Made by a program: the position numbers and the translations under genes. A stretch of DNA of 64,000 bases from a candidate division WOR-3 bacterium (GTDB lineage Bacteria > Hydrothermota > Hydrothermia > JBDRYB01). Each line of letters starts with the position of its first letter. Position 1 is the stretch's first letter. The stretch is taken from contig JBDRYB010000001.1 of NCBI GenBank assembly GCA_039803205.1, positions 23,998 to 87,997 of the forward strand. The letters are read 5' to 3'. Positions 2,439 to 51,855 of this stretch are shown one piece after another. The notes beneath the pieces were generated by a model that was given only the letters and a program-made list of their open reading frames with translations, ran no database searches and was not told the DNA's origin.

Positions 2439-2551
2439 GTTAGAGAATAAAAAAGAACCTCTCTGTAGACAAGGGCAACACCTTTTGTCTCAAAAAGAAA
2501 AATGCACGCAAAATCTGGATTCGCGGGCCAGGTTTTTCAACCCAAGAGCAA

Positions 2552-2923
2552 TCATTTCTTCCCTTCCCCAAACTCAACCAGAGATAGAACCGCCATCTCA
2601 GCGCAGTCCCCGCGCCTGGGGCCCAGTTTGACTATCCGGGTGTAGCCTCCTGGCCTATCCCTGTAGAGAGGGGCTATATCAGTGAAGAGCTTGTTGGTCA
2701 AGACCCTGTCCACCAGAAAACGCCTTACCTCCCTCCTGTTGTGAACTGTGTCCTCTTTTGCCGTAGTTATCAAGCGCTCAGCGATCCGCCCGGCCGCCCG
2801 GGCCCTTGTCAGGGTTGTCTCCACCCTACCGCTCAGGAAAAGCCCCCTAACTATATTTCTCAGAATGGCCTTCCGGTGCTCCGGCTCCCTGTTGAGCTTA
2901 ATAACACGCTTGCGGTGCCTCAA
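2552..2923 (-). CDS. rplQ: 50S ribosomal protein L17
   Basis: 123-aa translation has the typical L17 N-terminus (MRHRKRVIKLNR...); position after rpoA. Confidence 0.95.
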   Translation of the reverse strand: MRHRKRVIKLNREPEHRKAILRNIVRGLFLSGRVETTLTRARAAGRIAERLITTAKEDTVHNRREVRRFLVDRVLTNKLFTDIAPLYRDRPGGYTRIVKLGPRRGDCAEMAVLSLVEFGEGKK

Positions 2924-8411: not shown

Positions 8412-8483
8412 TCTGCCCGGAGAAGTTGTGGCGGCCTCTGACCAACCTGGAAAGCCTGTCCTGGGTTGCTTTATAATCTAGAT

Positions 8484-10283
8484 ATGAGAGCCCTCCTGTT
8501 GATCCCTTGGGGTTGTGGGCTTATCCTTGCCCAGGAGAAGATCCTGATCCCCATGGATGCCTCTCAAACAGACCATCTCAGAGCATATGGTGTTGCCTAC
8601 AGGACACTGGCAAGGGGGGTTAATGTTGAGTGGCTTTTGAACTGGGAAGGGGGGAGCTTCATGTGCGATCACAACAAGGCTACAGCGGCCGAGTGCGATT
8701 CCCTCGGGGTTTTATATAGGGTAATATCCCCGTCCGAGGCCTCATCCATACACGCGCGGATAGAGGAGGCGAACGCGAACGCGGTTCTTCTTGAAAAGGC
8801 ACCCAGGGTAGCGGTCTACATCCCGCCATACGAGGAACCATGGGACGATGCAGTTTCCCTTGCTCTTGAATACGCTGGAATACCCTATGACAGGATATGG
8901 GACAGGGAGGTTCTCTCGGGCCAGCTCAGGAAATACGACTGGCTTCACCTTCATCACGAGGACTTCACGGGCCAGTATGGCAAGTTCTATGGTTCATACC
9001 GAAACGCTCCGTGGTATCTTCAACAGGTTGAGATAAACGAGGCGATCGCGAAGGAGCTGGGATACCCCAATGTCCCTGAGGAAAAAAAGGCAGTCGCGAG
9101 GGCAATAAGGGAATATGTATCGGGGGGAGGGTTTCTGTTCGCGATGTGCTCGGGGCCCATTACCATGGACATAGCGCTTGCCGCGGAGGGCATTGACATC
9201 ACCGAGGAGGTGTATGACGGGGATCCGCCTGACCCGGATTTCCAATCAAGGCTTGATTTCAGCAAGGCCATGGCTCTCAAGGACGCGCGGCTCATAACCA
9301 GCCCATACATATACGAGCACTCAGATGTTGATGTAACACGGGAGGCGAGTCTGAGGGGCGAAAATACATATTTCAGCCTCTTTGAGTTCTCAGCGAAATT
9401 TGACCCCGTGCCCACCATGCTCACCCAGGACCACACTGGGGTTGTCAAGGAGTTCATGGGCCAGGATACGGGTTTCCGGAAGGACAAGCTTAAGCCAGAA
9501 GTGGTCGTAATGGGCCAGGTGGAGGGAACCGAGGAGGCAAAATACATATACGGGGCCTACGGAAAGGGCTTCTTCAGCTTTCTCGGAGGCCATGACCCTG
9601 AGGACTACCAGCACATGGTAGGCGACCCCCCGACGGACCTCAGACTCCACAGAAACAGCCCAGGCTACAGGCTCATACTCAACAATGTGCTTTTCCCAGC
9701 GGCCAAAAGGGAAAAATTAAAGACATCGGCGCCCGGATGGGGTTTTGCTCTGGTTGGTGGGCCGAGATACACGACCGCGGCTGGGCATGAATCGCCGGGC
9801 CTGTCCTGGGAAATAAGCGCGCTTGGACTCATGGGAATCTCCGCGGGACTAACGAGCGGCCTTGGTTTCGGATTATCATGGTTTGATAGCAGGTCAGGGG
9901 ATCTTCCGAATGGGGGCTGCGGCGAGGGTTACCTGGGGAAAGGTTTCAACGGAAGGCTCACTCTTATATGGGATCCCATGGCTGAAAGGATCTCGCAAAC
10001 CATCAGGCCACGGCTTACAGCAGAGGCTATCCTTTTCGGCATCCATTACCGCTATGAAGAAAGGGGTGCAGGTGGAACCCGTGTCTCTCCATGCACCTGG
10101 CGCGTTTTGCCTGTCATCCAGATGAGCGCTGGAGCGACCCTGGGGCCTCATCTGCAGATTGATCTTTCTGTTGCGACCGGGGCGGCCGCGCCAGGAGTCC
10201 ATCCCGGTGAAACAATCGGTTATCCGGCATACCCGTGGTCCTTTGCCCTTACCAGCAGGCTCTGGTCCCAAAAACGCGCATGA
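8484..10283 (+). CDS. secreted hypothetical protein (possible amidotransferase-like fold, possible C-terminal beta-rich domain)
   Basis: Signal-peptide-like N-terminus (MRALLLIPWGCGLILA); GGGFLFAMCSGP motif; stop overlaps the start of the next radical SAM gene. Confidence 0.5.
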   Translation: MRALLLIPWGCGLILAQEKILIPMDASQTDHLRAYGVAYRTLARGVNVEWLLNWEGGSFMCDHNKATAAECDSLGVLYRVISPSEASSIHARIEEANANAVLLEKAPRVAVYIPPYEEPWDDAVSLALEYAGIPYDRIWDREVLSGQLRKYDWLHLHHEDFTGQYGKFYGSYRNAPWYLQQVEINEAIAKELGYPNVPEEKKAVARAIREYVSGGGFLFAMCSGPITMDIALAAEGIDITEEVYDGDPPDPDFQSRLDFSKAMALKDARLITSPYIYEHSDVDVTREASLRGENTYFSLFEFSAKFDPVPTMLTQDHTGVVKEFMGQDTGFRKDKLKPEVVVMGQVEGTEEAKYIYGAYGKGFFSFLGGHDPEDYQHMVGDPPTDLRLHRNSPGYRLILNNVLFPAAKREKLKTSAPGWGFALVGGPRYTTAAGHESPGLSWEISALGLMGISAGLTSGLGFGLSWFDSRSGDLPNGGCGEGYLGKGFNGRLTLIWDPMAERISQTIRPRLTAEAILFGIHYRYEERGAGGTRVSPCTWRVLPVIQMSAGATLGPHLQIDLSVATGAAAPGVHPGETIGYPAYPWSFALTSRLWSQKRA

Positions 10284-11626
10284 TAATCGCAGAACCCCAG
10301 CTGATTGAACGCCTCGCTCTTTGGGCAATAAAGGAGCGAATTCCATTTCTGGGGCACTTTGGTCTCACGAGGCACTGCAACCTCATGTGCAGTTTCTGTC
10401 TGTGGGGGAAAAAACTGAAGCCTCGCGGTTTCATGTCACAGTTCCTTTTCAAAAAAGCCCTCTCGGAAATGAAGGAAATGGGCACCTTTGAGATAGAGCT
10501 GACGGGGGGCGATCCTCTTCTTCATCCGCATCTGCCTGATTTCATAAGGATAGCAACCGATCTCAGATTCGTGATAGCGATAACAACCAACGGCCTCAGG
10601 TTAACAGAAAGAAACCTGTCTGCGATAAAGGAGGGCCTGATCGCGCATGTTTCAGTGAGCATTCACGGAGCTAAGCCCGAAACCCACGACAGAATAGTGG
10701 GAAGACCAGGGGCCTGGAATATATCCCTCCGCAACATGGAGAAGCTTCTGGATAGTGGCGTAAGAACTATTGTTTGCTTCGTGATCACCAAGGAAAATCA
10801 CCAGGAAGTCAAAAATGCCAAAGCCCTCTTTGAGAGCATGGGAGCCAGGTTTCAGATGGTCCTGAAGTTGTATAATCCCTTCTGTCTTGAAGAAGTTGAG
10901 GCCTTGAAGCTCAGGGGCCATGCCCTCGCGGATCTGATGGGCCTCTTCCCTGATCCGCCGGTGTGCCCTCATCCTTGCGGCGCTTTCATGAACGCGGTAT
11001 ATATCAACCCCAACGGAGATGTTTGGCCCTGTATATCATTTCCCTTTAACCTGGGCAACATCGGTAAAACTAGCTTCAGGGAAATATGGGAAGGGATAAA
11101 CAAGGAGACCAGGGCGCTCCGGAGAAACCTTGTCCGCGCGAGAGAGAAGGGAGTCTACCGCGGAGTAGAGTATTTTTGCCCATCAATAAGTCGTGGATAT
11201 GACGGTTCTCTGGGAGGCCTTGAACCCCATGTAAAGGAGATAATAGACGCCTGGTTGAATGAGAGAAACGAATCGGCCAAGAGCAATTTTTCCCTGGATG
11301 AAGTAGTGTCCCCGGACAGACAAATCGCTATAAAGCTCGGGGAAAATCATGGATTCGTTCCCGAGGACGATGTTGCCTTCAGGTTACTGAGGGGAAGGGA
11401 AGAGACCTACCTTGTTCTTTGGAAGAGATCCACGAGGAGATATGCGGCTCTGGAGGGTCCCTGGGCGGAAGCGGTGAGCTGTATCCTCTCTGGCCAAAGG
11501 ATCAAGGATGCCCTAAAAATTTTGGAATCATCATTTAAGGGGTTCCGCATGAGCGAGGCCATAGTGGACATGGAAGCTCTTCTCAGCGAAATAGCCGGCA
11601 TGGGTTTCATCAAACTTGCCATTTGA
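10280..11626 (+). CDS. radical SAM/SPASM domain protein with C-terminal PqqD-like (RRE-like) extension
   Basis: CNLMCSFC radical SAM motif; cysteine-rich SPASM region (CPHPCGAF...WPCISFP, CPSIS); about 90-aa C-terminal tail resembling PqqD-type peptide-binding domains. Confidence 0.8.
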   Translation: MIIAEPQLIERLALWAIKERIPFLGHFGLTRHCNLMCSFCLWGKKLKPRGFMSQFLFKKALSEMKEMGTFEIELTGGDPLLHPHLPDFIRIATDLRFVIAITTNGLRLTERNLSAIKEGLIAHVSVSIHGAKPETHDRIVGRPGAWNISLRNMEKLLDSGVRTIVCFVITKENHQEVKNAKALFESMGARFQMVLKLYNPFCLEEVEALKLRGHALADLMGLFPDPPVCPHPCGAFMNAVYINPNGDVWPCISFPFNLGNIGKTSFREIWEGINKETRALRRNLVRAREKGVYRGVEYFCPSISRGYDGSLGGLEPHVKEIIDAWLNERNESAKSNFSLDEVVSPDRQIAIKLGENHGFVPEDDVAFRLLRGREETYLVLWKRSTRRYAALEGPWAEAVSCILSGQRIKDALKILESSFKGFRMSEAIVDMEALLSEIAGMGFIKLAI

Positions 11627-11829: not shown

Positions 11830-11843
11830 AATTATATCCTTCA

Positions 11844-12176
11844 TGGAGGCGGGGGGATTCGAACCCCCGTCCAGAGACCCAACCCGTAAAGCACCTACAC
11901 GCTTAGCTCGCCCTATTAACGCTCTGGAGGCTGGGCGAGCGAGCCCTTCCAGAGGTTTGCCCCTCTGTTTAACCGGACCCGCGGGGCACGAGCCCGGCGA
12001 CCCCGGATCTATGAGGCCCTTCTGGCGCGTCCGGGGAGCGCGGCCAGAGAACCTACGCCCTCAATTAGGCGTATGCGTATGCCTTTTCGGCAGTTATCTT
12101 TGCCGCTTTTTACGGGATGCGGCAACCCGACGTGCGCTTTATCGGGTCTATGGCCCTGTCAAGACCATTCGCCCCC
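11844..12176 (-). ncRNA. ssrA: transfer-messenger RNA (tmRNA, SsrA)
   Basis: 5' GGGGGCG pairs with 3' CGCCUCC acceptor stem including a G3:U70 pair, discriminator A, T-arm GGGGGUUCGAAUCCCCC; internal resume region GUAAAAAGCGGCAAAGAUAACU-GCC...UAA; CCA not encoded; the plus-strand ORF 11843..12184 is its antisense shadow. Confidence 0.85.
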
Positions 12177-12252: not shown

Positions 12253-12807
12253 CTAAATATCAATCAAAATCACCTTTATTGGCACGGCTGGAAAATGCCT
12301 CTTTAACCTCTCAATGTCCTCAATAAGCTGCTCTCCGTAGGAAACGCCGGATGACATTTCCTTGTGTAAGGCATAGGCAGGGACTATTTCTACGCCAGCA
12401 TCACAGTGGCCCTCGTTAAAGAAATACTGGAACTTAGCAAGATCGTAGAACATGAAAGCATACTTGCCCAGCTGAACTTCAACCAGAACCCTATCCTTCT
12501 GGAAATCTATCTGTTTAAACACCTTCACTGAATCAGAAACAAGTCTTTCGTCTTCGTATGGAAACCTCATATCATGATAGCTGCGGAGCTCCTTGAAGCC
12601 TCGCTTTGCAAACGCCCACCTGAACGCTCGGTTCATTTCCTTCGGATCGTAAAGGAGCTTACCTATCTTACCTTTCTCCTTGCTGATCTTGGTCTTCGTA
12701 GCTTGCACTTCTTCTATGATCTCGTCTATTTCGGACTCAATTACAGGGTATCTAACTCTCAATATCTCAAGCCCGCCCAAGTGCGAATACTCATAAACCT
12801 TTCTCAT
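12253..12807 (-). CDS. type II restriction endonuclease, BglII/BamHI-like fold (putative)
   Basis: 184 aa immediately downstream of and overlapping a DNA methyltransferase gene; D-x9-E-V-Q arrangement (IDFQKDRVLVEVQ) resembles the BglII active site; AT-richer than surroundings. Confidence 0.55.
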   Translation of the reverse strand: MRKVYEYSHLGGLEILRVRYPVIESEIDEIIEEVQATKTKISKEKGKIGKLLYDPKEMNRAFRWAFAKRGFKELRSYHDMRFPYEDERLVSDSVKVFKQIDFQKDRVLVEVQLGKYAFMFYDLAKFQYFFNEGHCDAGVEIVPAYALHKEMSSGVSYGEQLIEDIERLKRHFPAVPIKVILIDI

Positions 12808-13766
12808 AAGAGACTATCCTCCCAGGGTTGTTTTTTACCCGGCGGCTCATATATGGGCGTCCCCATCTCCCGAAGTCTAAGCTTGCCGCAGGAGAACAAA
12901 TTCAACCTTTCAAGCCCTATTTTGTAATATCTTTCATTTATCTCTGCTCCGACAAAGCGCCTTCTGTGCTTTATGGCCGCAATCGCGGATGAAGCCACGC
13001 CCATGAATGGATCGAAGACCCACTCGTCCTCGTTTGTTAATGAGAGGACAAGTCTCTCTATCAGCTCAACCGGAAACTGAGCTGGGTGCTCGGTCTTCTC
13101 CGGGTGATTACACTTGACATTCGGTATATCCCAGACATCTGTAGGGTTCTTGCCTAGGGGATTACAGGAAGGCTTACCTTTATTCGGCCCTTTGTGGAAC
13201 TTCTTGCCCGGATACCTCTGAGGAACCCGAACAGCATCAAGGTTAAAGACATAGGGCTCGCCCTTAGTGAACCACATTATAACCTCGTATCTACCAGAAA
13301 ATCTCTTGGACGCGTGAAGCCCGTGCCTGAAGTGCCATACTATCCGGTTGCGCATTACGAGGCCGAGATCCCTGAAAATAGGATAAAGCAGATAATCTAT
13401 TGGGATTATACTGCTGTTTTTAACCCAATTTCCGACCTGCCAGCATATAGAACCCCCGGTCTTTGTCACTCGTAAAGCCTCTTTTATTATCTCTCTGTGC
13501 CACCTTACATATTCATCAAGATCCATCTTTTGCTCGTATTCCTTGCCTATGTTGTATGGAGGAGAGGTTACTGTGAGCTGGACGCTTTCATCCGGTATGA
13601 AACGCACCAGATCAAAAGCTGAGCCCAGATAAAGGCAGGCCTGTGCAGAGCTATCATAGGTGTTCGTTATCCGTATTTCTCTCTGTTGGTGGGGAACATC
13701 CAACAGAACCGAAGCCTTGCCATTCAGAAGATCAGAAAGAATCCCCAAAGAATCTCGCTCTGCCAT
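12804..13766 (-). CDS. DNA methyltransferase, beta-class (N4-cytosine or N6-adenine)
   Basis: TSPPY motif IV near the N-terminus and DPFMGVASS motif I near the C-terminus (order IV then I). Confidence 0.85.
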   Translation of the reverse strand: MAERDSLGILSDLLNGKASVLLDVPHQQREIRITNTYDSSAQACLYLGSAFDLVRFIPDESVQLTVTSPPYNIGKEYEQKMDLDEYVRWHREIIKEALRVTKTGGSICWQVGNWVKNSSIIPIDYLLYPIFRDLGLVMRNRIVWHFRHGLHASKRFSGRYEVIMWFTKGEPYVFNLDAVRVPQRYPGKKFHKGPNKGKPSCNPLGKNPTDVWDIPNVKCNHPEKTEHPAQFPVELIERLVLSLTNEDEWVFDPFMGVASSAIAAIKHRRRFVGAEINERYYKIGLERLNLFSCGKLRLREMGTPIYEPPGKKQPWEDSLL

Positions 13767-13793: not shown

Positions 13794-14822
13794 CTACGGT
13801 TCAAACACCCCAGGAACCCTCACTCCGCAATCCGGACACCTCCCCTCCTTTAACCTATTTTCAAGAAGGGAAAACCGCCACCTCCTTATGAGGGTTTTCC
13901 CGCAGGATGGGCAACGGGTATCCTCAAGCCCTCTCATTTCCCTGTTCCCGGGGTATACGAACAGTAAGCCCTCTTCACGGCCTATCTCCATGGCTTTCGT
14001 GATGGAGGAGACAGAAGTCGGGGGGATGCTGTGGACCTTGTAGGCAGGGTAAAAACCGGAGATGTGCCACGGGGTCTCAGGGCCAAGCTCCTGAGCTACG
14101 AACCTGGCCATTTCTCTGATCTCCCCCTCAGAATCGTTCACCCCTGGAACAAGGAGGGTGGTTACCTCAACCCACACCCCCATGCTCTTCATTATTTTCA
14201 ACGCATTCATCACTGGCCTAGGCCTCCCGCCGGTCCATTTCTGCATGGAGGACTTGTTCACAAACTTGAAATCAACATTGGCCGCGTCCAACAATCCCTT
14301 CAACTCACAAAGCGGTTTCGGGTTTATGAACCCATTCGTAACCCAATTGTTCTTTAGGCCTCGCTCCTTCGCCATTCTCATGGTGTCTAAAGCATATTCA
14401 TAGTATATCGTGGGTTCGGTGTATGTGTAGCTTATTGAGGGAACTCCAGCGCTCAGCGCGGCCCTGACTATCTCATTTGGCGGAACCTGTTTTCTCGCAA
14501 GGGCATCCATGGTCCTGGGCTCAAGAACCGGCAGTTGGCTTATCTCCCAGTTTTGGCACCAGAGGCAGGATAGATTACAGCCGGGCGCGGCAACCGAGAG
14601 GCTCGCGGTTCCTGGCAGAAAGTGATAGAGCGGCTTTTTTTCAATGGGGTCTATGTGCGCGGCAATGAGAACGCCGTAATTCAGGCTGATGAGCTCATGG
14701 CCCCGTCTCTCCCTAACCCCGCAGGTGCCGCGCTCGCCTTCTCTGAGCCTACAAGAATGGGGGCACAGGTTGCAGATGATCTCCTGATCCTTCTGGGTGA
14801 AAAAAAGCGCCTTTCTGCTCAT
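13794..14822 (-). CDS. AmmeMemoRadiSam-system radical SAM enzyme (AmrS-like)
   Basis: CNLCPHSC plus CNLSCLWCQNWEIS motifs and HIDPIEKKPLYHFLPG block typical of the AmrS / PFL-activase-like family. Confidence 0.75.
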   Translation of the reverse strand: MSRKALFFTQKDQEIICNLCPHSCRLREGERGTCGVRERRGHELISLNYGVLIAAHIDPIEKKPLYHFLPGTASLSVAAPGCNLSCLWCQNWEISQLPVLEPRTMDALARKQVPPNEIVRAALSAGVPSISYTYTEPTIYYEYALDTMRMAKERGLKNNWVTNGFINPKPLCELKGLLDAANVDFKFVNKSSMQKWTGGRPRPVMNALKIMKSMGVWVEVTTLLVPGVNDSEGEIREMARFVAQELGPETPWHISGFYPAYKVHSIPPTSVSSITKAMEIGREEGLLFVYPGNREMRGLEDTRCPSCGKTLIRRWRFSLLENRLKEGRCPDCGVRVPGVFEP

Positions 14823-14876
14823 CAAAACCCCCATAATAGCGGGAATATCACCTGGGCAACCATGGAGGGATTGCCC

Positions 14877-16038: not shown

Positions 16039-16947
16039 CTAGTACCCCACCATTTCCAGAAAGCAATAGCCCCTCTTGTTCCCTTTGGTTATCCGACAAG
16101 CGCCCTCCCATATGAGAGGCCCGCGCATCATCCTGAAGAACTGATCCCTCACAATAGCCTCTGTTGTTAATTCAATATCCGGATCCGGAACCGAGATGTG
16201 CCAGGAAAGGGGGCATCTTCCGGTGGAATCACCCGCGATCCAATAGTCTCCAAGGGGTTCGGCCTTGAATTTCTTTATTCGCGAGACCTCGCCATTTCTG
16301 TCAATGTATGTGCCAAAACTGCGATCCTCATCGCGAAACTGCCAAAGCATCATCTCGGTGGTGTCCTCAAAACGGAACGAGAACCAGGCATACCTGCCCC
16401 CGGTTTCGCCCCACTGGTGATCCATCCAAGCGTCTCCCCGGAGAAAGAGGGTCTCGGCTCCCACGATCATCCTGCCGGAGGAGGCCATCCTAGTATAGGA
16501 GTAATACCAAGAGGGTTCCTCTCCAATCAGAAACACAGAGCCCTCATTTCCGTGGCTCGCCGGGGGCTTGAGGGCCCGGACATCAAGGGATATGGAAAAA
16601 CCTGTGTCCATGAGTCCAAACGAGAAGGCATCTTCTCCAATAGCCTTGAGATAACCCTCTTCTGTTTTTATGTCCAGTGCAAGAGAAGGGTTTTCCGGAA
16701 CCAGCATGGGAAACGCTCTCGTTTTTCGGAAAACCGTCTCGCCTGTCCCCAGGTTCACCATGCTGAAAACATGAACTTCGGTCTGACTAGCCGGGAAATG
16801 AAAGATTATGAAGCAATACGAATATGAGTTTCCCTGGCTGTCCGTCAGGATCCCGCTGAAATACCACCATTCCTTGAGGACATCCTCATGGGGCGCGTGA
16901 TCCTGGGGAAAGATGAAGCCCGCGGCCATAAGAAGGGTGACTAGCAT
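16039..16947 (-). CDS. AttH/CrtC-like (hydroxyneurosporene synthase-like, lipocalin-like) secreted protein
   Basis: WWYFSG motif and overall AttH-like pattern; signal-like N-terminus. Confidence 0.6.
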   Translation of the reverse strand: MLVTLLMAAGFIFPQDHAPHEDVLKEWWYFSGILTDSQGNSYSYCFIIFHFPASQTEVHVFSMVNLGTGETVFRKTRAFPMLVPENPSLALDIKTEEGYLKAIGEDAFSFGLMDTGFSISLDVRALKPPASHGNEGSVFLIGEEPSWYYSYTRMASSGRMIVGAETLFLRGDAWMDHQWGETGGRYAWFSFRFEDTTEMMLWQFRDEDRSFGTYIDRNGEVSRIKKFKAEPLGDYWIAGDSTGRCPLSWHISVPDPDIELTTEAIVRDQFFRMMRGPLIWEGACRITKGNKRGYCFLEMVGY

Positions 16948-20196: not shown

Positions 20197-21006
20197 TCAT
20201 TTCCTTATAAGCTTATTCAACAATTCTTCGCCTCTGGTAGTTCCAACCTCACGAAATACATCCAAAACAGCTTCGTAAGAACCTTCACCACCAATAAAAT
20301 CCCAGAATTCTTTGCCAATTAATATCTCATTATTCAGATCAAATAAAGAGAGGGTAAATCCCCACTTATAATTCACCTTTTCTTCGCCCCAGGGATTATA
20401 GGGGAAGCAAAATTTATAAACTCCATTCGGACCAATACCTGCTATAAAATAAAGGAACTTTTCTTTAGTTTGTGAACAAACATCCTTATTTGGCTCCGGA
20501 CTTTTTATCTCAAAAAAGTATTTTTTATCATTTTTATCCTCCAAATAAAGATCAGCTCTCAACAGAATCTCTTGACCTTCACTAGAAGAAGGCTCCAACC
20601 GAGGCAAGGGGGGTGGCGGATAGGGTCTCTCCTTCTTCCTTTTTACATTTTCTATAAAGGTAGCAATTGATTCCTTTATCCTATTATTTGTAGGAATTGC
20701 AAGGGTATAGTTTCGTTCCACCTTAACCCAAAAAGTATTATCGCTAGCTATAAGTTGTGCAATGTACTCAAATACCCCTTGCCCCAATGAAGTGTCAAAC
20801 GATCTGAAAAAGCTATGAAGTCTAAGAAAGTGGGGAGGAAGCAAAGCGGTGTGGAATGGCTTATATTTTCCTTTTTTAGGATCTAACCATACCTGTTTTA
20901 TAACAGCATTTTTCACAACATCCGGATCATACTTATTGACCAGACCTTGCAAAAATCCTTCTAGATATCCGATTATATTCTTTCGCGTAGTATCTTTTAG
21001 TTTCAT
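20197..21006 (-). CDS. putative type II restriction endonuclease
   Basis: 269-aa ORF directly downstream of and overlapping a DNA methyltransferase gene in a markedly AT-rich segment; assignment by context only. Confidence 0.4.
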   Translation of the reverse strand: MKLKDTTRKNIIGYLEGFLQGLVNKYDPDVVKNAVIKQVWLDPKKGKYKPFHTALLPPHFLRLHSFFRSFDTSLGQGVFEYIAQLIASDNTFWVKVERNYTLAIPTNNRIKESIATFIENVKRKKERPYPPPPLPRLEPSSSEGQEILLRADLYLEDKNDKKYFFEIKSPEPNKDVCSQTKEKFLYFIAGIGPNGVYKFCFPYNPWGEEKVNYKWGFTLSLFDLNNEILIGKEFWDFIGGEGSYEAVLDVFREVGTTRGEELLNKLIRK

Positions 21007-22373
21007 TCTTTGTATCCTTTCTGTAGAAATAAAACATATTCATATCTAAGTTTCGCAAACCCCCCCAGAATTGGCCTTCTCATAGCATAGACATCAGAAA
21101 AGCCTATTTCTGGAGCCCAGCTCTCTATCTTTTGACAAAAGTCGGTTCTTTTCCCGTCCACCACTACATCTCCCAATACTATGGCGGCCCATGCTCCTGG
21201 TTTCAGAACCCGGTGCATCTCTTCAACGCTTTTTCTAATGTCCTCCTCGTAGAACAATAATTTTTTATCTTTACCCCCCCTTAGACCCACCATTTGCTCT
21301 CTTAGCGGCGAGGTATCTATGCCCAAATAAGTAAGCAAGTGAAAGTCATTCTTCACATAGTCCAGGGCAATACTGTAAGGTGGGGAGGTTATTATTCCCG
21401 TTATGCTGTTGTCAGTGACCGGAAGGGCCATGGCCGAAGCAAGCTTTATCTCCGGTGCTTTAGGTTCCAGATTTAATTTCTTTAGAGTGAAATAGGTTCC
21501 CTTTATTGTCTGAAGGTATTCCGAAAGATTGATCAGGAAGAACTTTTCAAAAGACTTTTCTTTGGCTGTGCCCTTTAGATAAGTATAATCGGACAGGGCA
21601 TGTAGATATGCTAACAGCAGGAAATTCCTTATCTCAAAAGGTAGTTCTTTGATTTGAGAAGAGGGAAAACGAAATTCCCAGACATAATCAAGAATTTCTT
21701 TGGCATCAACCGGTTCGCTTTCGGGTAAGAATTTCTTGGTTTCAAGCTTTGCCGTCTTAAAGTATTCAAATATTCGTAACGGGGAACCTATCTGGTTTAT
21801 CGCGCTGTTCAGCTCATCATAGTTAATTCTCAGAGAATCTGTTTTTATTTGGGACACAATGCAAAGCGCAGGATTAATGTCTATCCCCAGTCCACCGGTT
21901 CTGAGGAGCGCTGTTTCCACAAGGGTGGTTCCTGATCCCAAAAACGGATCAAGGATGATATCCTCCTCGCCGGCGCCCATGAAGTTTATTATAGCCTTGA
22001 TCATCTGGCCGTGAAACTTGCCCTTGTAAGGGTAGAACCAGTGGGTCATGTATTGATTGCTATTTCCTATCTGACCCTTACCCCTTACTTTGGCTATTGA
22101 GGAGTGATAGCTGGGTTTCCCATCTACTATTTCAAAGTATGCTGACCTTTTCCGGAAGAGATCAAGGTCCTTCCCTAAGGTGGAGAACTCCATCCTTGCC
22201 AATTGAAGCTCATAAATCTGGCCAGCATCATCAAAGAGTTTGAAGCCGTTTCCGGGAAGGATGCCGCCAGTAGCCCAGGAAACAGGATCTATGGATTCTC
22301 CAAGAACACTCCGTAGAGAGACGGCATTCTCTTCTGTTTTTACTGGAAACAAGGCCTTTGCCTTCACCTTCAT
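21003..22373 (-). CDS. DNA methyltransferase (motif I DPFLGSGTT, motif IV TSPPY)
   Basis: Both MTase motifs present; start set at ATG 22373 preceded by GGAGG, just downstream of the purS stop. Confidence 0.8.
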   Translation of the reverse strand: MKVKAKALFPVKTEENAVSLRSVLGESIDPVSWATGGILPGNGFKLFDDAGQIYELQLARMEFSTLGKDLDLFRKRSAYFEIVDGKPSYHSSIAKVRGKGQIGNSNQYMTHWFYPYKGKFHGQMIKAIINFMGAGEEDIILDPFLGSGTTLVETALLRTGGLGIDINPALCIVSQIKTDSLRINYDELNSAINQIGSPLRIFEYFKTAKLETKKFLPESEPVDAKEILDYVWEFRFPSSQIKELPFEIRNFLLLAYLHALSDYTYLKGTAKEKSFEKFFLINLSEYLQTIKGTYFTLKKLNLEPKAPEIKLASAMALPVTDNSITGIITSPPYSIALDYVKNDFHLLTYLGIDTSPLREQMVGLRGGKDKKLLFYEEDIRKSVEEMHRVLKPGAWAAIVLGDVVVDGKRTDFCQKIESWAPEIGFSDVYAMRRPILGGFAKLRYEYVLFLQKGYKE

Positions 22374-22389
22374 ATTATACACCTCCCCT

Positions 22390-22641
22390 TCATTCCCTCT
22401 CCTCCATCTCATACCAGAACCTCTCTATTACCGGATTGGTGAGGAGTCTGCGGGACACATCCTCTATCTGAGCGCGCGCTGAGGCCTCGTCCGGAGCCTC
22501 AAGCGAAAACCGAACTATCTTTCCAACGCGCCCCTCTGAGACCGAAAGCCCAAGCCGCCTCATCGCGGCCTCAACAGCCATGCCCTGTGGATCTCTGAGA
22601 TCGTCGTGGGGCAGAATGAAGACATGAACCAGGTATCTCAT
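22390..22641 (-). CDS. purS: phosphoribosylformylglycinamidine synthase subunit PurS
   Basis: 83 aa with typical PurS sequence; adjacent to purC. Confidence 0.85.
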   Translation of the reverse strand: MRYLVHVFILPHDDLRDPQGMAVEAAMRRLGLSVSEGRVGKIVRFSLEAPDEASARAQIEDVSRRLLTNPVIERFWYEMEERE

Positions 22642-23330
22642 TCCAATCTCCTAGCGACCTCTCTGTAGGTCTCAAGCACATCCCCCTTGTCCTCCCTGAA
22701 GACATCCTTGTCCAGGCTCTCACCATCAGGCGTCCATAAGCGCATGGTATCAGGGCTTATCTCATCAGCAAGATAAAGCTTTCCATCATCGCCCACACCG
22801 AACTCAAACTTCATGTCCACGAGCTCAAGCCCTTTCTGAGCGAAAAGCCCCTTGAGGGCTATCCCTGCATCCAAGGCAATCTTCTGCATCTCCTGCACTT
22901 GCTCCTCGTCAGCGATGCCGAGAGCGAGAACGGTCATTGGGCATATCAGTGGGTCATGGAGGGAATCGTCCTTCAGGGTAAATTCCACGAGGGGGATCTC
23001 CAAGCGTCTCCCCCTTTCAATCCCATAACGCTTGCAGAGGGAGCCAGCGGCCCTGAAGCGAACCAGAACCTCAAGGGGTATTATCCTCACTCGGCGTGCC
23101 AGGAAGCTGGTGGCTGATAGTTGACCGAGGAAATGCGTCCTTATGCCCTTGCTCTCCAAGAACTGGAAGAGTTTGACGGATATTCCGCAATTCAAGGCTC
23201 CCTTTCCCTCAACGGTTGCCCTTTTCAGGGCGTCAAAAGCGGTTAAAGAATCCTTGAAATGGATTATAACCCTGCCTGGCTCATCAGCCTCGTATACCTG
23301 TTTTGCTTTGCCCTCGTGGAGGAGCTTCAT
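22638..23330 (-). CDS. purC: phosphoribosylaminoimidazole-succinocarboxamide synthase
   Basis: SAICAR synthetase pattern from MKLLHEGKAKQVYEAD; start trimmed to the internal ATG. Confidence 0.9.
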   Translation of the reverse strand: MKLLHEGKAKQVYEADEPGRVIIHFKDSLTAFDALKRATVEGKGALNCGISVKLFQFLESKGIRTHFLGQLSATSFLARRVRIIPLEVLVRFRAAGSLCKRYGIERGRRLEIPLVEFTLKDDSLHDPLICPMTVLALGIADEEQVQEMQKIALDAGIALKGLFAQKGLELVDMKFEFGVGDDGKLYLADEISPDTMRLWTPDGESLDKDVFREDKGDVLETYREVARRLE

Positions 23331-23344
23331 GCTGAGATTATAAC

Positions 23345-23372
23345 GGTTGCCGGTTGCCGGTTGCCAGTTGCC
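23345..23372. repeat. tandem heptamer repeat (GGTTGCC x3 plus AGTTGCC)
   Basis: Read directly: ggttgcc ggttgcc ggttgcc agttgcc, in the intergenic region between purC and the divergent PhaR-like gene. Confidence 0.9.
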
Positions 23373-23486
23373 GGTCAACTTGAAACAAGTAGGTATTGGC
23401 CGGCTCTTTAACTCAATCGGAGGTAAGGTTTTGGCGCGAAGGCGCGCGATTGATCCTTCTTTGACCCTTGCCTTATAATTTACGCA

Positions 23487-23822
23487 ATGCGTAAAAAAAT
23501 CAGGCTCATCCACAGGTATTCAAACAGGAAGATGTATGACACGGCAGGGAAAGCCTTCATAACCCTGGGACAGGTCCTGAGGATGATCGCCCAGGGCATA
23601 AGGGTCAAGGTCATAGACAAGGTCTCGGGGATTGATGTGACCAACCTAATAAGGATAAGGGCAATAGCCAATGAGGCAGAGCGTATCGCCAGAAGGATGT
23701 CATCGGCGGCCTCCAGGGACGCGATAAAGCTCCAGGAATTAGCCGTGGAGCTCGGAAACCTCATGAGAGAGATGGCGAGGCTCAGTAGAATAGTGAAAAA
23801 GGAGGCGCAGAATGGAAGTTAA
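23487..23822 (+). CDS. PhaR-like regulator (PHB/PHA accumulation regulator N-terminal DNA-binding domain)
   Basis: HRYSNRKMYDTAGKAFITLGQV matches the PHB_acc_N signature (KkYpNRRLYDT); C-terminal coiled coil. Confidence 0.6.
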   Translation: MRKKIRLIHRYSNRKMYDTAGKAFITLGQVLRMIAQGIRVKVIDKVSGIDVTNLIRIRAIANEAERIARRMSSAASRDAIKLQELAVELGNLMREMARLSRIVKKEAQNGS

Positions 23823-25290
23823 GGCACTATCCCCCAACATATCAAAGCTTCTCAAAGGCGCCAGCGGCCGAGAGATAATAACTAGGCTTTCGGCCCCTGC
23901 CTTCAAAAACAGGGCCGTGAGGAAGGGGCTTCTGCTATACATTAAGTCCCAGATAAACCGAGGGAACTACTCCGCGATCGTTGCGGGGAATAGGCCGCCC
24001 GGAGTCAAAAGGGATGTAGCGTGGGCCGCGTGGGCCTTGTTGAGATCACTAGATAGGGCCATAGAGGACAAAAGGCTCTCTCACAGGTTCGCGGGGAGGC
24101 TGGTTGAGGTTTTTCTGAACAACATGGTGGCAAGCTGGGCCGATAGGGGAGAAATAAGCGGGTTTTTCAAAAACAAGGGGGAGAAAGGCCCGCCCGGTTT
24201 CCTGGTCATCAGCCCCGCTAAGGCGTGCAACCTCAGGTGTCCGGATTGCTACGCGGCCTCAGGCGCAAACCCTGAGAAGCTCAGCGCGCGCGAGTTCCGG
24301 AGGATAATCACGGAGGCAAAGGAGCTCTGGGGGGTCCGTTTCTTCGTGATCTCCGGCGGAGAACCTTTTCTATGGAGGGACGGGGATACCCGGTTCCTTG
24401 ATGTGGTTGAGGAAAACCCCGATTGCTTTTTCATGGTTTATACGAACGGAACCCTGATAGAGGATGAGGTCGCTGACAGGCTCTCAGAGCTCGCTAATCT
24501 TACCCCGGCAATATCCCTGGAGGGCTTTGAGGAGGAGACGGACAGCAGAAGGGGAAAGGGCACATACGAGAAGGTCCTCGGCGCAATGGCAAGGCTCAGA
24601 AAGAGGGGTATACCCTTCGGAATATCCCTCACTGCTACCAAGAGAAATTACAGGCTTCTGCTTTCTGATGGGTTCCTCAGCGAGTTCTTTGAGCGTCAGG
24701 GCGCGACATACGGTTGGATATTCCAGTATATGCCCATAGGCAGGGATCTGGATCTCTCGCTGATGCCAAGCCCGGAAGAAAGGCTATGGATGTGGAGGCG
24801 CGGGTGGGATGTGATAAGGAAGAAGGGTTATTTCCTGATGGACTTCTGGAACCAGGGAACGGTCTCAGCCGGGTGCATATCTGGCGGAAGGCACACGGGA
24901 TACCTTTACATAGACTGGAACGCTAATGTGTATCCGTGCGTCTTTGTTCCCTATGCCGGCGCGAACCTCAGGGAGATATACGCCAGGGGAGGGACGATAA
25001 CCGAGGCTTACGATTCGCCGCTTTTCAGGGCAATAAGGCGATGGCACGACGCTTACGGGTATGGTAAAACAGAGCCCAATAAGCACAAGAACTGGCTCGC
25101 GCCGTGCCTCATAAGGGATCACTTCCGCGTGCTCAAGAGGCTTGTGGAAAGACACGGGGCAAGGCCGGCGGATACGGTGGCCGCTGAGCTCATAAAAAAC
25201 CCCGAACACGGGGCATTCATGGAGGAATACGATAGGGTTTTCTCTGAGCTCACTCAACCGATATGGAAAAAGGAATATCTAGGGCCGTAG
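23812..25290 (+). CDS. radical SAM protein with about 130-aa N-terminal extension and C-terminal auxiliary Cys cluster
   Basis: CNLRCPDC motif; GGEPF; downstream cysteines (GCISGG...YPCVFVP, APCLI) suggest an auxiliary Fe-S (SPASM/twitch-like) region. Confidence 0.75.
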   Translation: MEVKALSPNISKLLKGASGREIITRLSAPAFKNRAVRKGLLLYIKSQINRGNYSAIVAGNRPPGVKRDVAWAAWALLRSLDRAIEDKRLSHRFAGRLVEVFLNNMVASWADRGEISGFFKNKGEKGPPGFLVISPAKACNLRCPDCYAASGANPEKLSAREFRRIITEAKELWGVRFFVISGGEPFLWRDGDTRFLDVVEENPDCFFMVYTNGTLIEDEVADRLSELANLTPAISLEGFEEETDSRRGKGTYEKVLGAMARLRKRGIPFGISLTATKRNYRLLLSDGFLSEFFERQGATYGWIFQYMPIGRDLDLSLMPSPEERLWMWRRGWDVIRKKGYFLMDFWNQGTVSAGCISGGRHTGYLYIDWNANVYPCVFVPYAGANLREIYARGGTITEAYDSPLFRAIRRWHDAYGYGKTEPNKHKNWLAPCLIRDHFRVLKRLVERHGARPADTVAAELIKNPEHGAFMEEYDRVFSELTQPIWKKEYLGP

Positions 25291-25934
25291 GCCTCGGGGT
25301 CTTCGCAGTAGCAATGGCATACCTTGAGTCCGCCGTAGTTATTTATCTGAGAAGGCTTTATTACCCTGAGGGCTTCTCCTTCCCAATGAAGCTGGCAGAT
25401 CCGTTTGTTGCCGCGGTTGAGGTGGGTCGCGAGCTGGCTACCATAATCATGCTCGGGGCCCTTGGTTTTCTCTCAGAAAGAACTCACGCGAGGCGTTTTC
25501 TGGCGTTTCTCTTTGTTTTCGGAATATGGGATATGTTCTATTACCTATGGCTCAAGGTCTTTCTCGGTTGGCCATCTGGTTGGCTTGACTGGGATGTCCT
25601 CTTTCTCTTTCCGGTTCCATGGTTCGCTCCCTGGATAACACCGACCCTCGTTGCTCTCGTCCTCTCATTTGTATCTGGAACCCTGCTGTTGATGGCTCGG
25701 AACGGCCGGGAAATAAGGATCGGCCTCCCTGAAATCGCCCTTGGGGTCCTCGGGTCCCTCGCATGCCTGTTCTCCTTCACATTTGACGGGTTCAGGCTCG
25801 CTCTCCGCGGCGTTGATGCGATCAGGGCCTTCGTGCCGGTCAGGTTCCTGTGGGAGGCCTATTTGCCGGGGCTCACGCTCATCACGGTAGCTGGTGGGAT
25901 TGTCGTTGAGCGAAACCGGGGCTCTGGTGTATAA
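25263..25934 (+). CDS. integral membrane protein, function unknown
   Basis: 223 aa with 5-6 hydrophobic helices. Confidence 0.5.
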   Translation: MEKGISRAVGLGVFAVAMAYLESAVVIYLRRLYYPEGFSFPMKLADPFVAAVEVGRELATIIMLGALGFLSERTHARRFLAFLFVFGIWDMFYYLWLKVFLGWPSGWLDWDVLFLFPVPWFAPWITPTLVALVLSFVSGTLLLMARNGREIRIGLPEIALGVLGSLACLFSFTFDGFRLALRGVDAIRAFVPVRFLWEAYLPGLTLITVAGGIVVERNRGSGV

Positions 25935-25942
25935 TATGAGGT

Positions 25943-26476
25943 ATGGCCAAAATAAGACAAAATGTGCTTTCCGGAATAGGCAAGCTCTTTCTGAGAGCCG
26001 CGAAACGAGGCCTCATGCCAAAGAGGATCGCTTATACACTCGTCGGTCTCGCCACATCCCTTACAGGCGCGTCAAAAGGCCCCTGCGCTGTGATGTGCTA
26101 TGAGGTTCCACCAACAGAACCGTGGATCTCTAGGGTTCTGATCACCAAGAATCCGCTGAGGGGCAAATTCAGGCTAACAGCCACCATAAAAAGCAACGAG
26201 AGGCCTGTGGGCGGTGCTGATGTCAATTTTTGGGTATGGAAGGATGGCCAGGCAGAGGTGTTTCGCGTTGTCCCCATGAACCCGGCTGATGGGGCGTTTG
26301 ATTCTCTAACGGAGGAGGCATATGCCGATCTGGCCCTATGGGGATGGCCCCAAGGAACGAAGATGAACATTTCCGCTTACGACAAGGATGGGAATCACGG
26401 CACCCCACTCAGGATTGGCGTTGAGGTGATGTTCGGGATCCTTTCATTTGAATGCGAGGAGATAGTGGGCTATTGA
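25943..26476 (+). CDS. hypothetical protein
   Basis: 177-aa ORF whose end overlaps the start of the downstream radical SAM/SPASM gene. Confidence 0.35.
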   Translation: MAKIRQNVLSGIGKLFLRAAKRGLMPKRIAYTLVGLATSLTGASKGPCAVMCYEVPPTEPWISRVLITKNPLRGKFRLTATIKSNERPVGGADVNFWVWKDGQAEVFRVVPMNPADGAFDSLTEEAYADLALWGWPQGTKMNISAYDKDGNHGTPLRIGVEVMFGILSFECEEIVGY

Positions 26477-27498
26477 GCGACAAACCAGTTCTCGCGGCCG
26501 CTTTTGAGACAACTCCCAGGTGCAACGCCAACTGTTTGTATTGTTATAATGTCTGGAAGGCTCATCCGGACTATCCAAGGGGGGAACCGGACGCGGAGGG
26601 TCTCCTCCGGGTCCTTGATGCCATCCTTAAGAGCGAGCGGGTGACCATCGTGAGCCTAACCGGCGGAGAGCCACTGCTTCTGGGCGATCTCATCCTTGAG
26701 ATGGGCGCTATGGCGAGGCTTTCAGGAAAATCCGTGAACCTCGTCACCAACGGTTCTCTTATCAGCAAAGGCTTTGCCAAGAACCTCAAGAGGCTCAGCA
26801 TAAGGCCCGTAGAGATAACCCTCCTATCAGCAAGGGAGGAGTTGCACGATTCCTTGCAAAGAGCGAGGACATTCCGGAGCGCAGTTAGCGCCATAAGGAC
26901 AGTGGCTGATGTCGGCGGGGAAGCAATAGTTGGCATAGTCGGAACGAAAGCAAACATTCCCTTTCTCTCCGAGACCCTTGAATTCGCAAAGACCCTCGGA
27001 GCCAAGGGCGCCATGTTCACCAGGTTCAACCCCGGCGGCCAGGGGCTTAGGCACTGGCGGGAGCTCGGGCCTTCCAAGGAGGAACTCAGGTCAGCCATAA
27101 AAACCCTTATGAAATTTGCCGACGAAAACCCAAACCTGACTATAACCTGCGGCGTTCCTATTCCCCCATGCGTTCTAGGTTTCACTGACTACGGAAGGGT
27201 AAAGATGGGTTATTGCAACGCTGGGGGCGATCTCATAGCCATAGATTGGCTCGGAAACCTCCGTCCGTGCAACCATTCCTCCCTTATAGTGGGGAACATA
27301 CTCAAGGTGCCCCTTGATGAGCTTCTGGAATCAAAGCGGTTAAAGGATTTCATGCTCCCTGTGCCTAAGATGTGCGTCGGTTGCCAGTTCTACGATCTAT
27401 GCAAGGGGGGTTGCCGGGCCGCGGCATTTGAGATGGCTTGGTGGCTCAGGAAGGAAAGGTCTGCTGGGTCCATCCGGTTTTCCGGACACACCATCTAG
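26452..27498 (+). CDS. radical SAM/SPASM domain protein
   Basis: CNANCLYC radical SAM motif; SPASM cysteines (CNAGGD...LRPC, CVGCQFYDLCKGGC). Confidence 0.8.
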   Translation: MRGDSGLLSDKPVLAAAFETTPRCNANCLYCYNVWKAHPDYPRGEPDAEGLLRVLDAILKSERVTIVSLTGGEPLLLGDLILEMGAMARLSGKSVNLVTNGSLISKGFAKNLKRLSIRPVEITLLSAREELHDSLQRARTFRSAVSAIRTVADVGGEAIVGIVGTKANIPFLSETLEFAKTLGAKGAMFTRFNPGGQGLRHWRELGPSKEELRSAIKTLMKFADENPNLTITCGVPIPPCVLGFTDYGRVKMGYCNAGGDLIAIDWLGNLRPCNHSSLIVGNILKVPLDELLESKRLKDFMLPVPKMCVGCQFYDLCKGGCRAAAFEMAWWLRKERSAGSIRFSGHTI

Positions 27499-27565: not shown

Positions 27566-27575
27566 TTGGGGCTAA

Positions 27576-27657
27576 GCGAGGGTGGCGGAAAGGCAGACGC
27601 GCCAGATTTAGGATCTGGTGGGCTAATCCCGTGCGGGTTCAAGTCCCGCCCCTCGCA
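27576..27657 (+). tRNA. tRNA-Leu (anticodon UAG), type II with long variable arm
   Basis: Manual fold: acceptor GCGAGGG/CCCUCGC, anticodon stem CCAGA/UCUGG with loop UUUAGGA, T-arm GCGGG-UUCAAGU-CCCGC, discriminator A; the track ORF 27566.. runs through it. Confidence 0.85.
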
Positions 27658-27694
27658 TATCCATTCCAGTTCAGAGAAACATTTTGGAATAAAA

Positions 27695-28651
27695 ATGAAG
27701 GTTGCTGTTGTCGGAGCGGCTGGCCTGGTTGGAAGGACCATGCTTCGCGTCCTTGAGAAGAGGGGCTTTCCGGTCTCGGAGCTGGCGGCTTATGACAAGC
27801 TATCGGGAGAAAGTCTGCTCTTCCGCGGCAATAAGCACCTGTGCATCAGGTTAACTCCAACATCCGTCAGGGGTTTTGACCTCGCGCTTTTTTCGGCAGG
27901 TGCGGATGTCTCCCTGAAATACGCGCCCCTGTTTGCCAAAAAGGGCGCGCTAGTGGTTGACAATTCCTCCGCCTGGCGCATGCATCCCAAGGTTCCACTT
28001 GTCGTCCCAGAGGTGAACCCAGAGGCGCTCATGGATATTCCAATGGGCATCGTGGCCAATCCAAATTGTTCAACGATCCAGATGGTCGTGGCTCTCAAGC
28101 CCCTGGTTCGCTTCGGCATAAAGGAGGTCTTCGTGGCGACATATCAGGCGGTCTCAGGGGCTGGAAAGGACGGGATTGACGCGCTCATATCGGAAGAGAA
28201 GGGCAAGAGGTCGTCAAATTCCCCTCACCTCGGCCCAATTCACAGGAATGTCTTGCCCGGAATAGGAAACTTTGAGGAGGGTTTCTACGAGGAGGAGACG
28301 AAGCTCATCCGTGAGACAAAGAAAATAATGGGCCTTGATGTTCCCGTTCATCCGACCGCGGTGAGGGTTCCTGTGATAGCTGGCCACTCCGAGGCCGTTG
28401 CGGTAAGGCTAAAGAAGAAGGTAAGCCTTGAGGAAATAAAAGCTTCTATGGGAGAGCAGGAGGGCCTCGTCCTCAGCGATGGTTTTGTCACCCCGAAGGA
28501 GGCCGAGGGCAAGGATGAGGTCTTTGTCTCCAGGCTCAGATTTTCGCCTGATGATCCGAGGGTTCTCCTGATGTGGGTTGTCTCAGATAACCTTCTGAAG
28601 GGAGCCGCTCTCAACGCGGTTCAAATAGCAGAGAGGGCCCTATTGCGGTGA
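27695..28651 (+). CDS. asd: aspartate-semialdehyde dehydrogenase
   Basis: MKVAVVGAAGLVGRTML Rossmann N-terminus and Asd core; start at internal ATG 27695. Confidence 0.9.
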   Translation: MKVAVVGAAGLVGRTMLRVLEKRGFPVSELAAYDKLSGESLLFRGNKHLCIRLTPTSVRGFDLALFSAGADVSLKYAPLFAKKGALVVDNSSAWRMHPKVPLVVPEVNPEALMDIPMGIVANPNCSTIQMVVALKPLVRFGIKEVFVATYQAVSGAGKDGIDALISEEKGKRSSNSPHLGPIHRNVLPGIGNFEEGFYEEETKLIRETKKIMGLDVPVHPTAVRVPVIAGHSEAVAVRLKKKVSLEEIKASMGEQEGLVLSDGFVTPKEAEGKDEVFVSRLRFSPDDPRVLLMWVVSDNLLKGAALNAVQIAERALLR

Positions 28652-51853: not shown

Positions 51854-51855
51854 CC

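Follow-up and report, generated by a model that had tools for sequence, protein, structure and literature searches.

A conserved three-gene locus of candidate division WOR-3 that may couple a PhaR-like autorepressor to a lipid-directed radical SAM enzyme and a membrane protein

Introduction

The bacterial producers of branched and membrane-spanning tetraether lipids, and the enzymes they use for the purpose, are the subject of a long-standing question, and tetraether lipids are the basis of widely used palaeotemperature and pH proxies. The closest described system is Mss, the bacterial membrane-spanning lipid synthase, a radical S-adenosylmethionine (SAM) enzyme exemplified by Tmari_0825 of Thermotoga maritima and WP_129545148.1 of Thermoanaerobacter ethanolicus (Sahonero-Canavesi et al. 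2022, PMC13159169); it is reported to couple lipids tail to tail in the absence of oxygen, with long-chain alpha,omega-diacids as products. The locus that we compare with it lies in a 64-kb stretch of DNA of a candidate division WOR-3 bacterium (contig JBDRYB010000001.1), the whole of which is called the window here. It carries, in this order, genes for a PhaR-like DNA-binding protein of 111 amino acids (aa), a radical SAM enzyme of 492 aa and a six-helix membrane protein of 223 aa, followed by genes for a 177-aa protein and a second radical SAM enzyme of 348 aa.

Published thresholds for Mss homology are an E value of 1e-50 or lower and at least 30% identity, and Mss is reported from Armatimonadota, Chloroflexota, Latescibacteria, Thermotogae, delta-proteobacteria and candidate phyla, with 25 positives among 558 metagenome-assembled genomes (MAGs) of Black Sea Chloroflexota. 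Two further radical SAM enzymes of membrane-spanning lipids have been described. The archaeal tetraether synthase Tes, or GDGT-MAS (PDB 7TOL, 7TOM), is characterized by three [4Fe-4S] clusters and a further iron site. Gms (Hbs), the synthase of glycerol monoalkyl glycerol tetraethers (GMGTs), is an AhbD-like enzyme with an N-terminal lipid-binding extension that cross-links the two chains of membrane-spanning lipids (PMC11214058). A preprint reports that in candidate phyla, WOR-3 among them, gms/hbs genes of bacteria are found clustered with mss (10.1101/2023.10.20.563219).

The reading of the WOR-3 locus that we favour, and to which we give an even chance, is that its first three genes form a leaderless, self-repressed operon for a radical SAM enzyme acting on lipid tails, most likely by an Mss-like tail-to-tail coupling, with the membrane protein as its partner. 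The enzyme would abstract a hydrogen atom from an unactivated carbon of a membrane-lipid chain, and the most likely reaction would be one that makes a carbon–carbon bond joining two lipid tails to give membrane-spanning lipids, as with bacterial Mss. The 111-aa protein would bind a palindrome as a dimer and repress its own operon, like PhaR at its own promoter, and by the same analogy one may speculate that a hydrophobic lipid surface relieves the repression. The translationally coupled membrane protein would be a partner peculiar to this lineage, with the task of handling the lipid, as substrate or as product, inside the membrane.

Conservation of the locus

The conserved unit consists of three genes, those for the 111-aa, 492-aa and 223-aa proteins (23487-25934). 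In about six WOR-3 lineages this trio is kept at 62–79% protein identity with differing flanking genes, and in the relatives whose enzymes are 71–79% identical the order and the overlaps of the three genes are unchanged. Three downstream contexts were found, namely alaS (loci L001-L003), a series of DUF948, YtxH, gap, GT2 and HhH-GPD genes (L087), and the 177-aa gene in the window. Since the gap, GT2 and HhH-GPD block, which comes directly after the trio in L087 (5906-8875), lies 25 kb away in the window (50864-53824), the trio has moved as a unit; the differing position of this block is a rearrangement between the two lineages. Five metagenome contigs carry relatives of the regulator at 64–75% identity (L099-L103); in all five the enzyme gene comes next, and the membrane protein gene follows it in all four that extend far enough. 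In more distant WOR-3 members of the enzyme family (46% identity; L035, L053) an ArsR-type gene lies upstream instead of the PhaR-like gene, and no gene for the six-helix protein was found at these loci.

The preliminary description of this region had considered all five genes (23487-27498) together. The five open reading frames (ORFs) were indeed verified on one strand, with short overlaps, at the positions it gave (Table 1). Successive junctions are an 11-nt overlap, a 28-nt overlap, an 8-nt gap and a 25-nt overlap. This common strand and tight packing would suit a single pathway in which two radical SAM enzymes cooperate; transcription may read through from the first promoter, and there is no convincing terminator after the membrane protein gene. 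The comparative context nevertheless largely refutes such a pathway. Neither the 177-aa nor the 348-aa gene was found within 4–8 kb of the trio in any relative examined, L099-L103 included, the 81% ortholog of the 348-aa enzyme is located elsewhere in a related genome, the 177-aa gene is preceded by a promoter-like site of its own, and the genes around members of the 348-aa family vary and bear no relation to the 492-aa family. Neighbourhood conservation in relatives thus holds for the first three genes and fails for the last two, which are a separate, recently juxtaposed two-gene unit, and we regard a five-gene pathway as very improbable.

The 492-aa enzyme and its family

The N-terminal extension of about 130 aa noticed earlier is confirmed by the start of the Radical_SAM domain at residue 134. 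In an AlphaFold model (pLDDT 88, pTM 0.89) residues 1-120 form six helices and no beta strand, and because it is all-helical this domain is not a fold of the RRE (peptide-recognition) type. It is kept across the enzyme family, with P62 and D68 invariant. The CxxxCxxC motif (C139/C143/C146) is also invariant, and the only other cysteines conserved in the family are C355, C376 and C432; the extra C-terminal cysteine "clusters" described earlier were thus an overstatement. The C-terminal part is twitch-like, with one reduced auxiliary cluster site. An AAGGAGG Shine–Dalgarno sequence lies 5' of the gene.

Searches gave more than 5000 matches, and those listed had 87–100% query coverage and 44–52% identity across phyla, N-terminal domain included. 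At least 549 family loci occur among GTDB species representatives, mostly in Anaerolineae, and the family extends to Armatimonadota, WOR-3, Latescibacteria, Sumerlaeota, Krumholzibacteriota, Acidobacteriota, Verrucomicrobiota, Bipolaricaulota, Desulfobacterales, Thermodesulfobacteriota and one Thermotogae MAG. The trio, apparently self-regulated, is built around an enzyme whose radical SAM family is very large, associated with lipid genes, and either uncharacterised or Mss-like.

The curated models place neither radical SAM enzyme of the region in a characterised family. No NCBIfam cut-off was reached by either enzyme, including those of anSME, PqqE, MftC, AhbD and NirJ; the best curated scores of the two were 84 of the required 265 bits for MftC and 92 of 400 bits for GeoRSP. 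The anSME score was 33.9 bits against a cut-off of 349, and HpnH fell outside the 25 best families, i.e. below about 34 bits.

An assignment as a peptide or protein maturase of the RiPP (ribosomally synthesized and post-translationally modified peptide) or anSME type, with the membrane protein exporting or processing the product and the regulator in control, would agree with SkfB, SuiB, anSME and MftC being the best sequence and fold matches of the 492-aa enzyme. These matches lie far under the family cut-offs, however, and the all-helical N-terminal domain lacks an RRE-like beta sheet. Three auxiliary cysteines are conserved as opposed to the seven of the SPASM motif, no conserved small precursor gene occurs beside the trio or beside family members elsewhere, and the neighbours are lipid genes. 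With the MftC score at 84 versus 265 bits, no RRE and no conserved small ORF, identity as a RiPP SPASM/twitch maturase was rejected, and a maturase function of any such kind seems quite improbable.

Of the lipid enzymes, Tes was rejected as well. A profile of the 492-aa family matched GDGT-MAS with an E value of 0.0036 over 84 residues of generic core, which settles in the negative the identity with tetraether synthases raised in the preliminary description; moreover, Tes is a multi-cluster enzyme, whereas the 492-aa family has three conserved extra cysteines. The relation to Gms is closer in architecture, since both have an N-terminal extension of 100–130 aa before a SPASM/twitch-class core, and a YxPxGR...PTPEQR motif is common to the two. 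Gms has a full SPASM motif and strong AhbD homology, which the 492-aa enzyme lacks: it scores 68 bits with the AhbD model, at model positions 8-185 only, and Gms/Hbs identity was rejected on this score and the absence of a full SPASM motif. The 348-aa enzyme scores 87 bits with the same model but is shorter than 400 aa and has no extension at all. The AhbD/Gms-like clade and the 492-aa family are distant kin, with 25% identity in the core.

Like the 492-aa enzyme, Mss is a radical SAM enzyme outside the Tes family, and its phyletic spread, as far as reported, is similar to that of the 492-aa family. The clustering with Gms/Hbs that is reported for Mss is seen for the 492-aa family at two loci (L035, L080) but not in the window. 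The PhaR-like regulator, the phasin-like neighbour and the six-helix partner that accompany the trio or the family appear in none of the passages of the Mss papers that were searched. Because Mss is rare in Black Sea Chloroflexota whereas the 492-aa family is very common in Anaerolineae, the family may be distinct from Mss.

More distant homologs occur on IncF plasmids of enterobacteria, with 34–38% identity to the 492-aa enzyme over 66–76% of its length (L095, E. albertii pEA5_1, 2254-3633; L096, a K. pneumoniae plasmid, 6767-8068). These plasmid radical SAM genes stand alone, beside IS66 elements and a gene for a 191-aa hypothetical protein.

Neighbours of the family in other phyla

The genes around the family were surveyed at 80 GTDB loci (L007-L086), within about 5 kb of the enzyme gene or, for the phasin hidden Markov model (HMM), 10 kb; neighbour genes were clustered and representatives of each cluster were scanned. 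Most frequent was a patatin-like phospholipase (36 loci), found in Chloroflexota and five to six other lineages. A phasin-like protein (PF05597) was detected by HMM at 28 loci, in Chloroflexota and four to five other lineages, and often adjoins the enzyme gene. DegV, a fatty-acid-binding protein, also occurred at 28 loci, a 236-aa helix-turn-helix protein at 27, a UppS-family prenyltransferase at 24, a NadE-like protein at 17 (in eight lineages), an ABC1/UbiB kinase at 13, a glycosyltransferase resembling monogalactosyldiacylglycerol (MGDG) synthase at 11, a UbiA-family protein at six and PlsY at one, in a Thermotogae MAG (L074). A B12 radical SAM protein, with the hopanoid C-methylase HpnR as its best match (328 bits), was present at three loci, in Armatimonadota, Sumerlaeota and a proteobacterium.

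Gms-like genes adjoin family members in WOR-3 (L035) and in Thermodesulfobacteriota (L080). The AhbD-like enzymes that they encode score 227–246 bits over the full AhbD model and have N-terminal extensions of 120–135 aa; as judged from their sequences, they match the published hallmarks of Gms.

A lipid chain as the substrate of the 492-aa enzyme is the best-supported reading because of the neighbours outside Chloroflexota together with this Gms-like adjacency, and the lipid-directed role that had been proposed earlier as a speculation is in agreement with the family neighbourhoods in several phyla. The reaction on the lipid could differ from the coupling of two tails. An intramolecular cross-link, a cyclisation, a desaturation or a modification of an isoprenoid of the polyprenyl or quinone type would be compatible with the UbiA-family, UppS-family, GT2 and ABC1/UbiB genes in the Chloroflexota and Verrucomicrobiota arrays, and with the distant kinship (25% in the core) to the AhbD/Gms-like clade, whose reactions differ. 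On the other hand, DegV, patatin and PlsY indicate acyl lipids over isoprenoids, and the adjacency of Gms-like genes at L035 and L080 fits a family that makes the membrane-spanning substrate for Gms-type bridging. Such other lipid chemistry is in our opinion rather unlikely.

A similarly minor chance is given to the view that the 492-aa family is neither Tes nor Mss but a third, independent and widespread radical SAM family that forms carbon–carbon bonds in lipids and is escorted or regulated by PHA-type proteins of lipid surfaces, phasin-like or mini-PhaR. If this were true, the family could supply the route, missing so far, by which Chloroflexota, Armatimonadota, WOR-3 and further uncultured anaerobes make lipids of the membrane-spanning or branched tetraether type. 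The family is abundant in uncultured anaerobic phyla that are suspected as tetraether sources (Chloroflexota, Armatimonadota and others). If, on the contrary, the family is Mss itself, the gain would be smaller, namely a new regulatory and membrane-partner variant.

Several points weigh against an Mss-like, self-repressed lipid operon with a membrane partner. The likening of the family to Mss comes from published descriptions. Of the 80 loci, 53 belong to Chloroflexota, where much of the synteny is inherited, so the counts are not independent. The divergent NadE-like PP-loop protein, which scores 220 bits against the NAD synthase cut-off of 255 and carries an insertion, is the neighbour with the widest spread, over eight lineages (the loci include L008, L009, L013, L015, L024, L034, L057, L058, L069 and L074), and is not explained by the lipid model. 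Patatin, DegV, phasin, Ger and PlsA genes were not found beside the trio of the window, nor among its 54 larger ORFs in a Pfam scan. We infer DNA binding by the 111-aa protein from its domain and the palindrome only, and the family of the membrane protein is mostly found alone in other phyla, e.g. Ignavibacteria, with no radical SAM neighbour.

The window itself contains a gene for an MGDG-synthase-like glycolipid glycosyltransferase (42584-43693), 17 kb from the trio; this type of gene follows the enzyme family in Anaerolineae.

Promoter, palindrome and regulator

The regulator gene is preceded by a sigma-70-type promoter, the -10 box of which ends 7 nt before the ATG (23487), and no Shine–Dalgarno sequence was found 5' of this start codon. 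For these two reasons the mRNA of the regulator is probably leaderless. The same TATAAT-6-7 nt-ATG geometry is present at purC (minus strand, 6 nt; 23328-23342) and at the 177-aa gene, so leaderless starts look common in this genome. The palindrome TTTACGCAATGCGTAAA covers the edge of the -10 box, the expected transcription start and the start codon, and is the sole perfect copy in the window. Further copies as members of a regulon were looked for in the window and rejected, as one weak match with three mismatches is at chance level.

In relatives the -35 and -10 boxes recur with the same spacing (L001, L007, L087, L099-L103), while the DNA 5' of the promoter is unrelated to that of the window. 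All nine relatives for which this DNA is available have the palindrome in the form TTTACGC[A/G]ATGCGTAAA, and in all nine the string TTATAATTTACGC[A/G]ATGCGTAAA is kept together with the -35 box. A direct repeat, CTGACAC-N4-CTGACAC, lies just 5' of the -35 box in L001 (7590-7620), L087 (2690-2720) and L099-L103. The window has a GGTTGCC repeat in its place, and the CTGACAC repeat may be a second regulatory site that was lost or replaced here after rearrangement.

The 111-aa protein has a PHB_acc_N domain at residues 7-65, which scores 59.2 bits with PF07879 (cut-off 25), and a C-terminal coiled coil at about residues 57-110; for the C-terminal half, coiled coils are the only resemblance found. 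It is 68–71% identical to three aligned relatives. The PhaR model TIGR01848 gives 48.5 bits against a cut-off of 109.45, over positions 1-63 of its 107. Hence the description of this protein as PhaR-type stands as far as the DNA-binding domain PF07879 is concerned, and falls short for PhaR as a family. PhaR is autoregulated through an operator that overlaps its own promoter. A candidate operator over the promoter of its own gene is a point of likeness of the trio operon to PhaR, with binding here putative, and the C-terminal coiled coil suits a dimer on the palindrome. Differences from PhaR are that the 111-aa protein has about half its length, lacks the PHB_acc C-terminal domain, and is encoded at the head of a radical SAM operon. 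The observed geometry points to a leaderless trio operon in which binding and repression by its first product are predicted. The trio of the window is a compact three-gene version of the system with a clear promoter and a candidate operator; if the proposal is true, it would be the first radical SAM lipid operon found under the control of a PhaR-type DNA-binding domain.

The step from PhaR to lipid or polyhydroxyalkanoate (PHA) regulation, made in the preliminary description, is weak as an argument from homology, which covers the DNA-binding domain only; there is a functional parallel in the phasin-like genes that flank the enzyme family elsewhere. Scans of ORFs across the window brought up neither a PHA synthase nor a phasin gene, and the phasin HMM had no match there. 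The PhaR-like protein was compared with the phasin-like neighbours in other phyla, and homology of the two was rejected (hhalign probability 0.7%); their likeness is functional only, in that proteins of the PHA-granule type stand beside one enzyme family in different phyla.

The membrane protein

The 223-aa protein has six predicted helices and a beta-hairpin, and matched neither a Pfam or NCBIfam family nor a solved fold. Its family counts at least 1874 proteins, which are about 220 aa long and have no Pfam domain; E22, R30, E53, R56, E57, D90, D111 and Trp and Pro motifs are invariant in it. The invariant charges within the membrane suggest that this protein may act in catalysis or transport. 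In Ignavibacteria and in another large genome the family member is solitary, and it is only in this WOR-3 subclade that membrane protein and enzyme are linked.

The 177-aa and 348-aa genes

The second unit probably has its own promoter, since a promoter-like site with TATAAT-7 nt-ATG geometry (25906-25935) lies 7 nt before the ATG of the 177-aa gene. The 348-aa enzyme becomes a protein of 341 aa if translation starts at TTG 26473, as in the NCBI models of near-identical proteins, and the 25-nt overlap with the preceding gene then shrinks to 4 nt. This TTGA stop-start overlap (26473-26476), with GAGGAG upstream, indicates translational coupling of the two genes.

The 177-aa protein consists of an N-terminal hydrophobic anchor, followed by CAVMCYEVPP, and a beta-rich domain, present once here and as repeats in giant proteins. 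Among 1.8 billion representatives it has 48 relatives, many of which measure 700–4100 aa with two to eight matched stretches; the match to this repeated domain, in proteins as long as 4100 aa, involves residues 55-160. The SPASM family of the 348-aa enzyme is widespread, with 37–43% identity in Planctomycetota, Verrucomicrobiota and others. Its 81% ortholog (L091) comes from the metagenome that also contains L002 but from a different contig; the genes beside the ortholog are unrelated and do not include the trio, and a gap of 450 bp upstream of it contains no 177-aa gene. Neighbours of the 348-aa family are variable and mostly unannotated proteins without a Pfam match. A conserved partner was sought and rejected, as the upstream proteins of L093 and L094 are related neither to the 177-aa protein nor to one another.

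The two genes could be a protein-maturation unit, in which the SPASM enzyme modifies either the product of the gene just upstream, an anchored surface protein, or other proteins that are secreted. Consistent with this are the gene overlap at stop and start with GAGGAG upstream, the anchor and CAVMCYEVPP sequence of the 177-aa protein, and the unannotated proteins that usually flank distant 348-aa homologs, with N-terminal hydrophobic segments in the upstream partners of L093 and L094. The partner proteins are not homologous among themselves, however, the closest ortholog lacks the 177-aa gene, and no curated maturase family was matched, so that we put this function forward as tentative and on balance doubtful.

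At L093 (6001-9600), genes for a B12-binding radical SAM protein and for a type III polyketide synthase come after that of a distant 348-aa homolog, an array that may be an alkylresorcinol- or lipid-type cluster.

Flanks and other features of the window

The features of the region are collected in Table 1. Near-identical proteins come from MAGs of candidate division WOR-3.

Table 1 Features of the region in window coordinates
Feature	Position	Strand	Basis
Promoter TTGATC-18 nt-TATAAT	23450..23479	+	10/12 consensus matches; sigma-70-type
17-bp palindrome TTTACGCAATGCGTAAA	23479..23495	.	Inverted repeat, 8-nt arms, 100% complementary
PHB_acc_N protein, 111 aa	23487..23822	+	PF07879, E 4e-16
Radical SAM enzyme, 492 aa	23812..25290	+	Radical_SAM at residues 134-268
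Six-helix membrane protein, 223 aa	25263..25934	+	Helix prediction
Second promoter-like site TTGAGC-18 nt-TATAAT	25906..25935	+	10/12 consensus matches
177-aa protein	25943..26476	+	Without Pfam or NCBIfam match
Radical SAM/SPASM enzyme, 348 aa	26452..27498	+	Radical_SAM and SPASM domains
tRNA-Leu, anticodon TAG	27576..27657	+	Closing element of the region

Housekeeping genes flank the region, namely purC, which is on the minus strand and the start of which was corrected to 23330, and asd. Between purC and the regulator gene lies a (GGTTGCC)x4 tandem repeat (23344-23371). The tRNA-Leu gene, preceded by a TATAAT box, sits within the 5' end of the listed 361-aa asd ORF (27566-28651). Since the tRNA occupies this position, the start of asd was corrected to about 27695 (MKVAVVGA); family matches begin at residue 43-45 of the listed ORF.

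An Rfam scan of the window gave only tmRNA and tRNA. The tmRNA gene (tag AEKAYAYA) adjoins genes for a BglII-like restriction endonuclease and an N6/N4 DNA methylase (11841-12176, 12253-13766), which may be an island inserted at the tmRNA gene. A second restriction-modification pair (20197-22412) consists of a TdeIII-type endonuclease and a 469-aa methylase; it lies in the lowest-GC stretch of the window (41.6% versus about 54%), which suggests horizontal acquisition.

In all, the window holds five radical SAM genes. The three besides those for the 492-aa and 348-aa enzymes lie within 141-2438, 8466-11626 and 13794-14834; they encode, respectively, a 765-aa protein with Radical_SAM_N2 and DUF2344 domains, a SPASM enzyme of 463 aa, overlapping an upstream 605-aa ORF without a family match, and a 346-aa radical SAM enzyme. 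At a distance of 7 kb from the trio (16039-16947, minus strand) lies a gene for a double-lipocalin protein of the CrtC/AttH type. According to its title, a 2025 preprint reports that an AttH hydratase mediates hydroxy-GDGT (glycerol dialkyl glycerol tetraether) biosynthesis (10.1101/2025.10.20.683597), and the CrtC/AttH-type gene could be another lipid-modifying gene.

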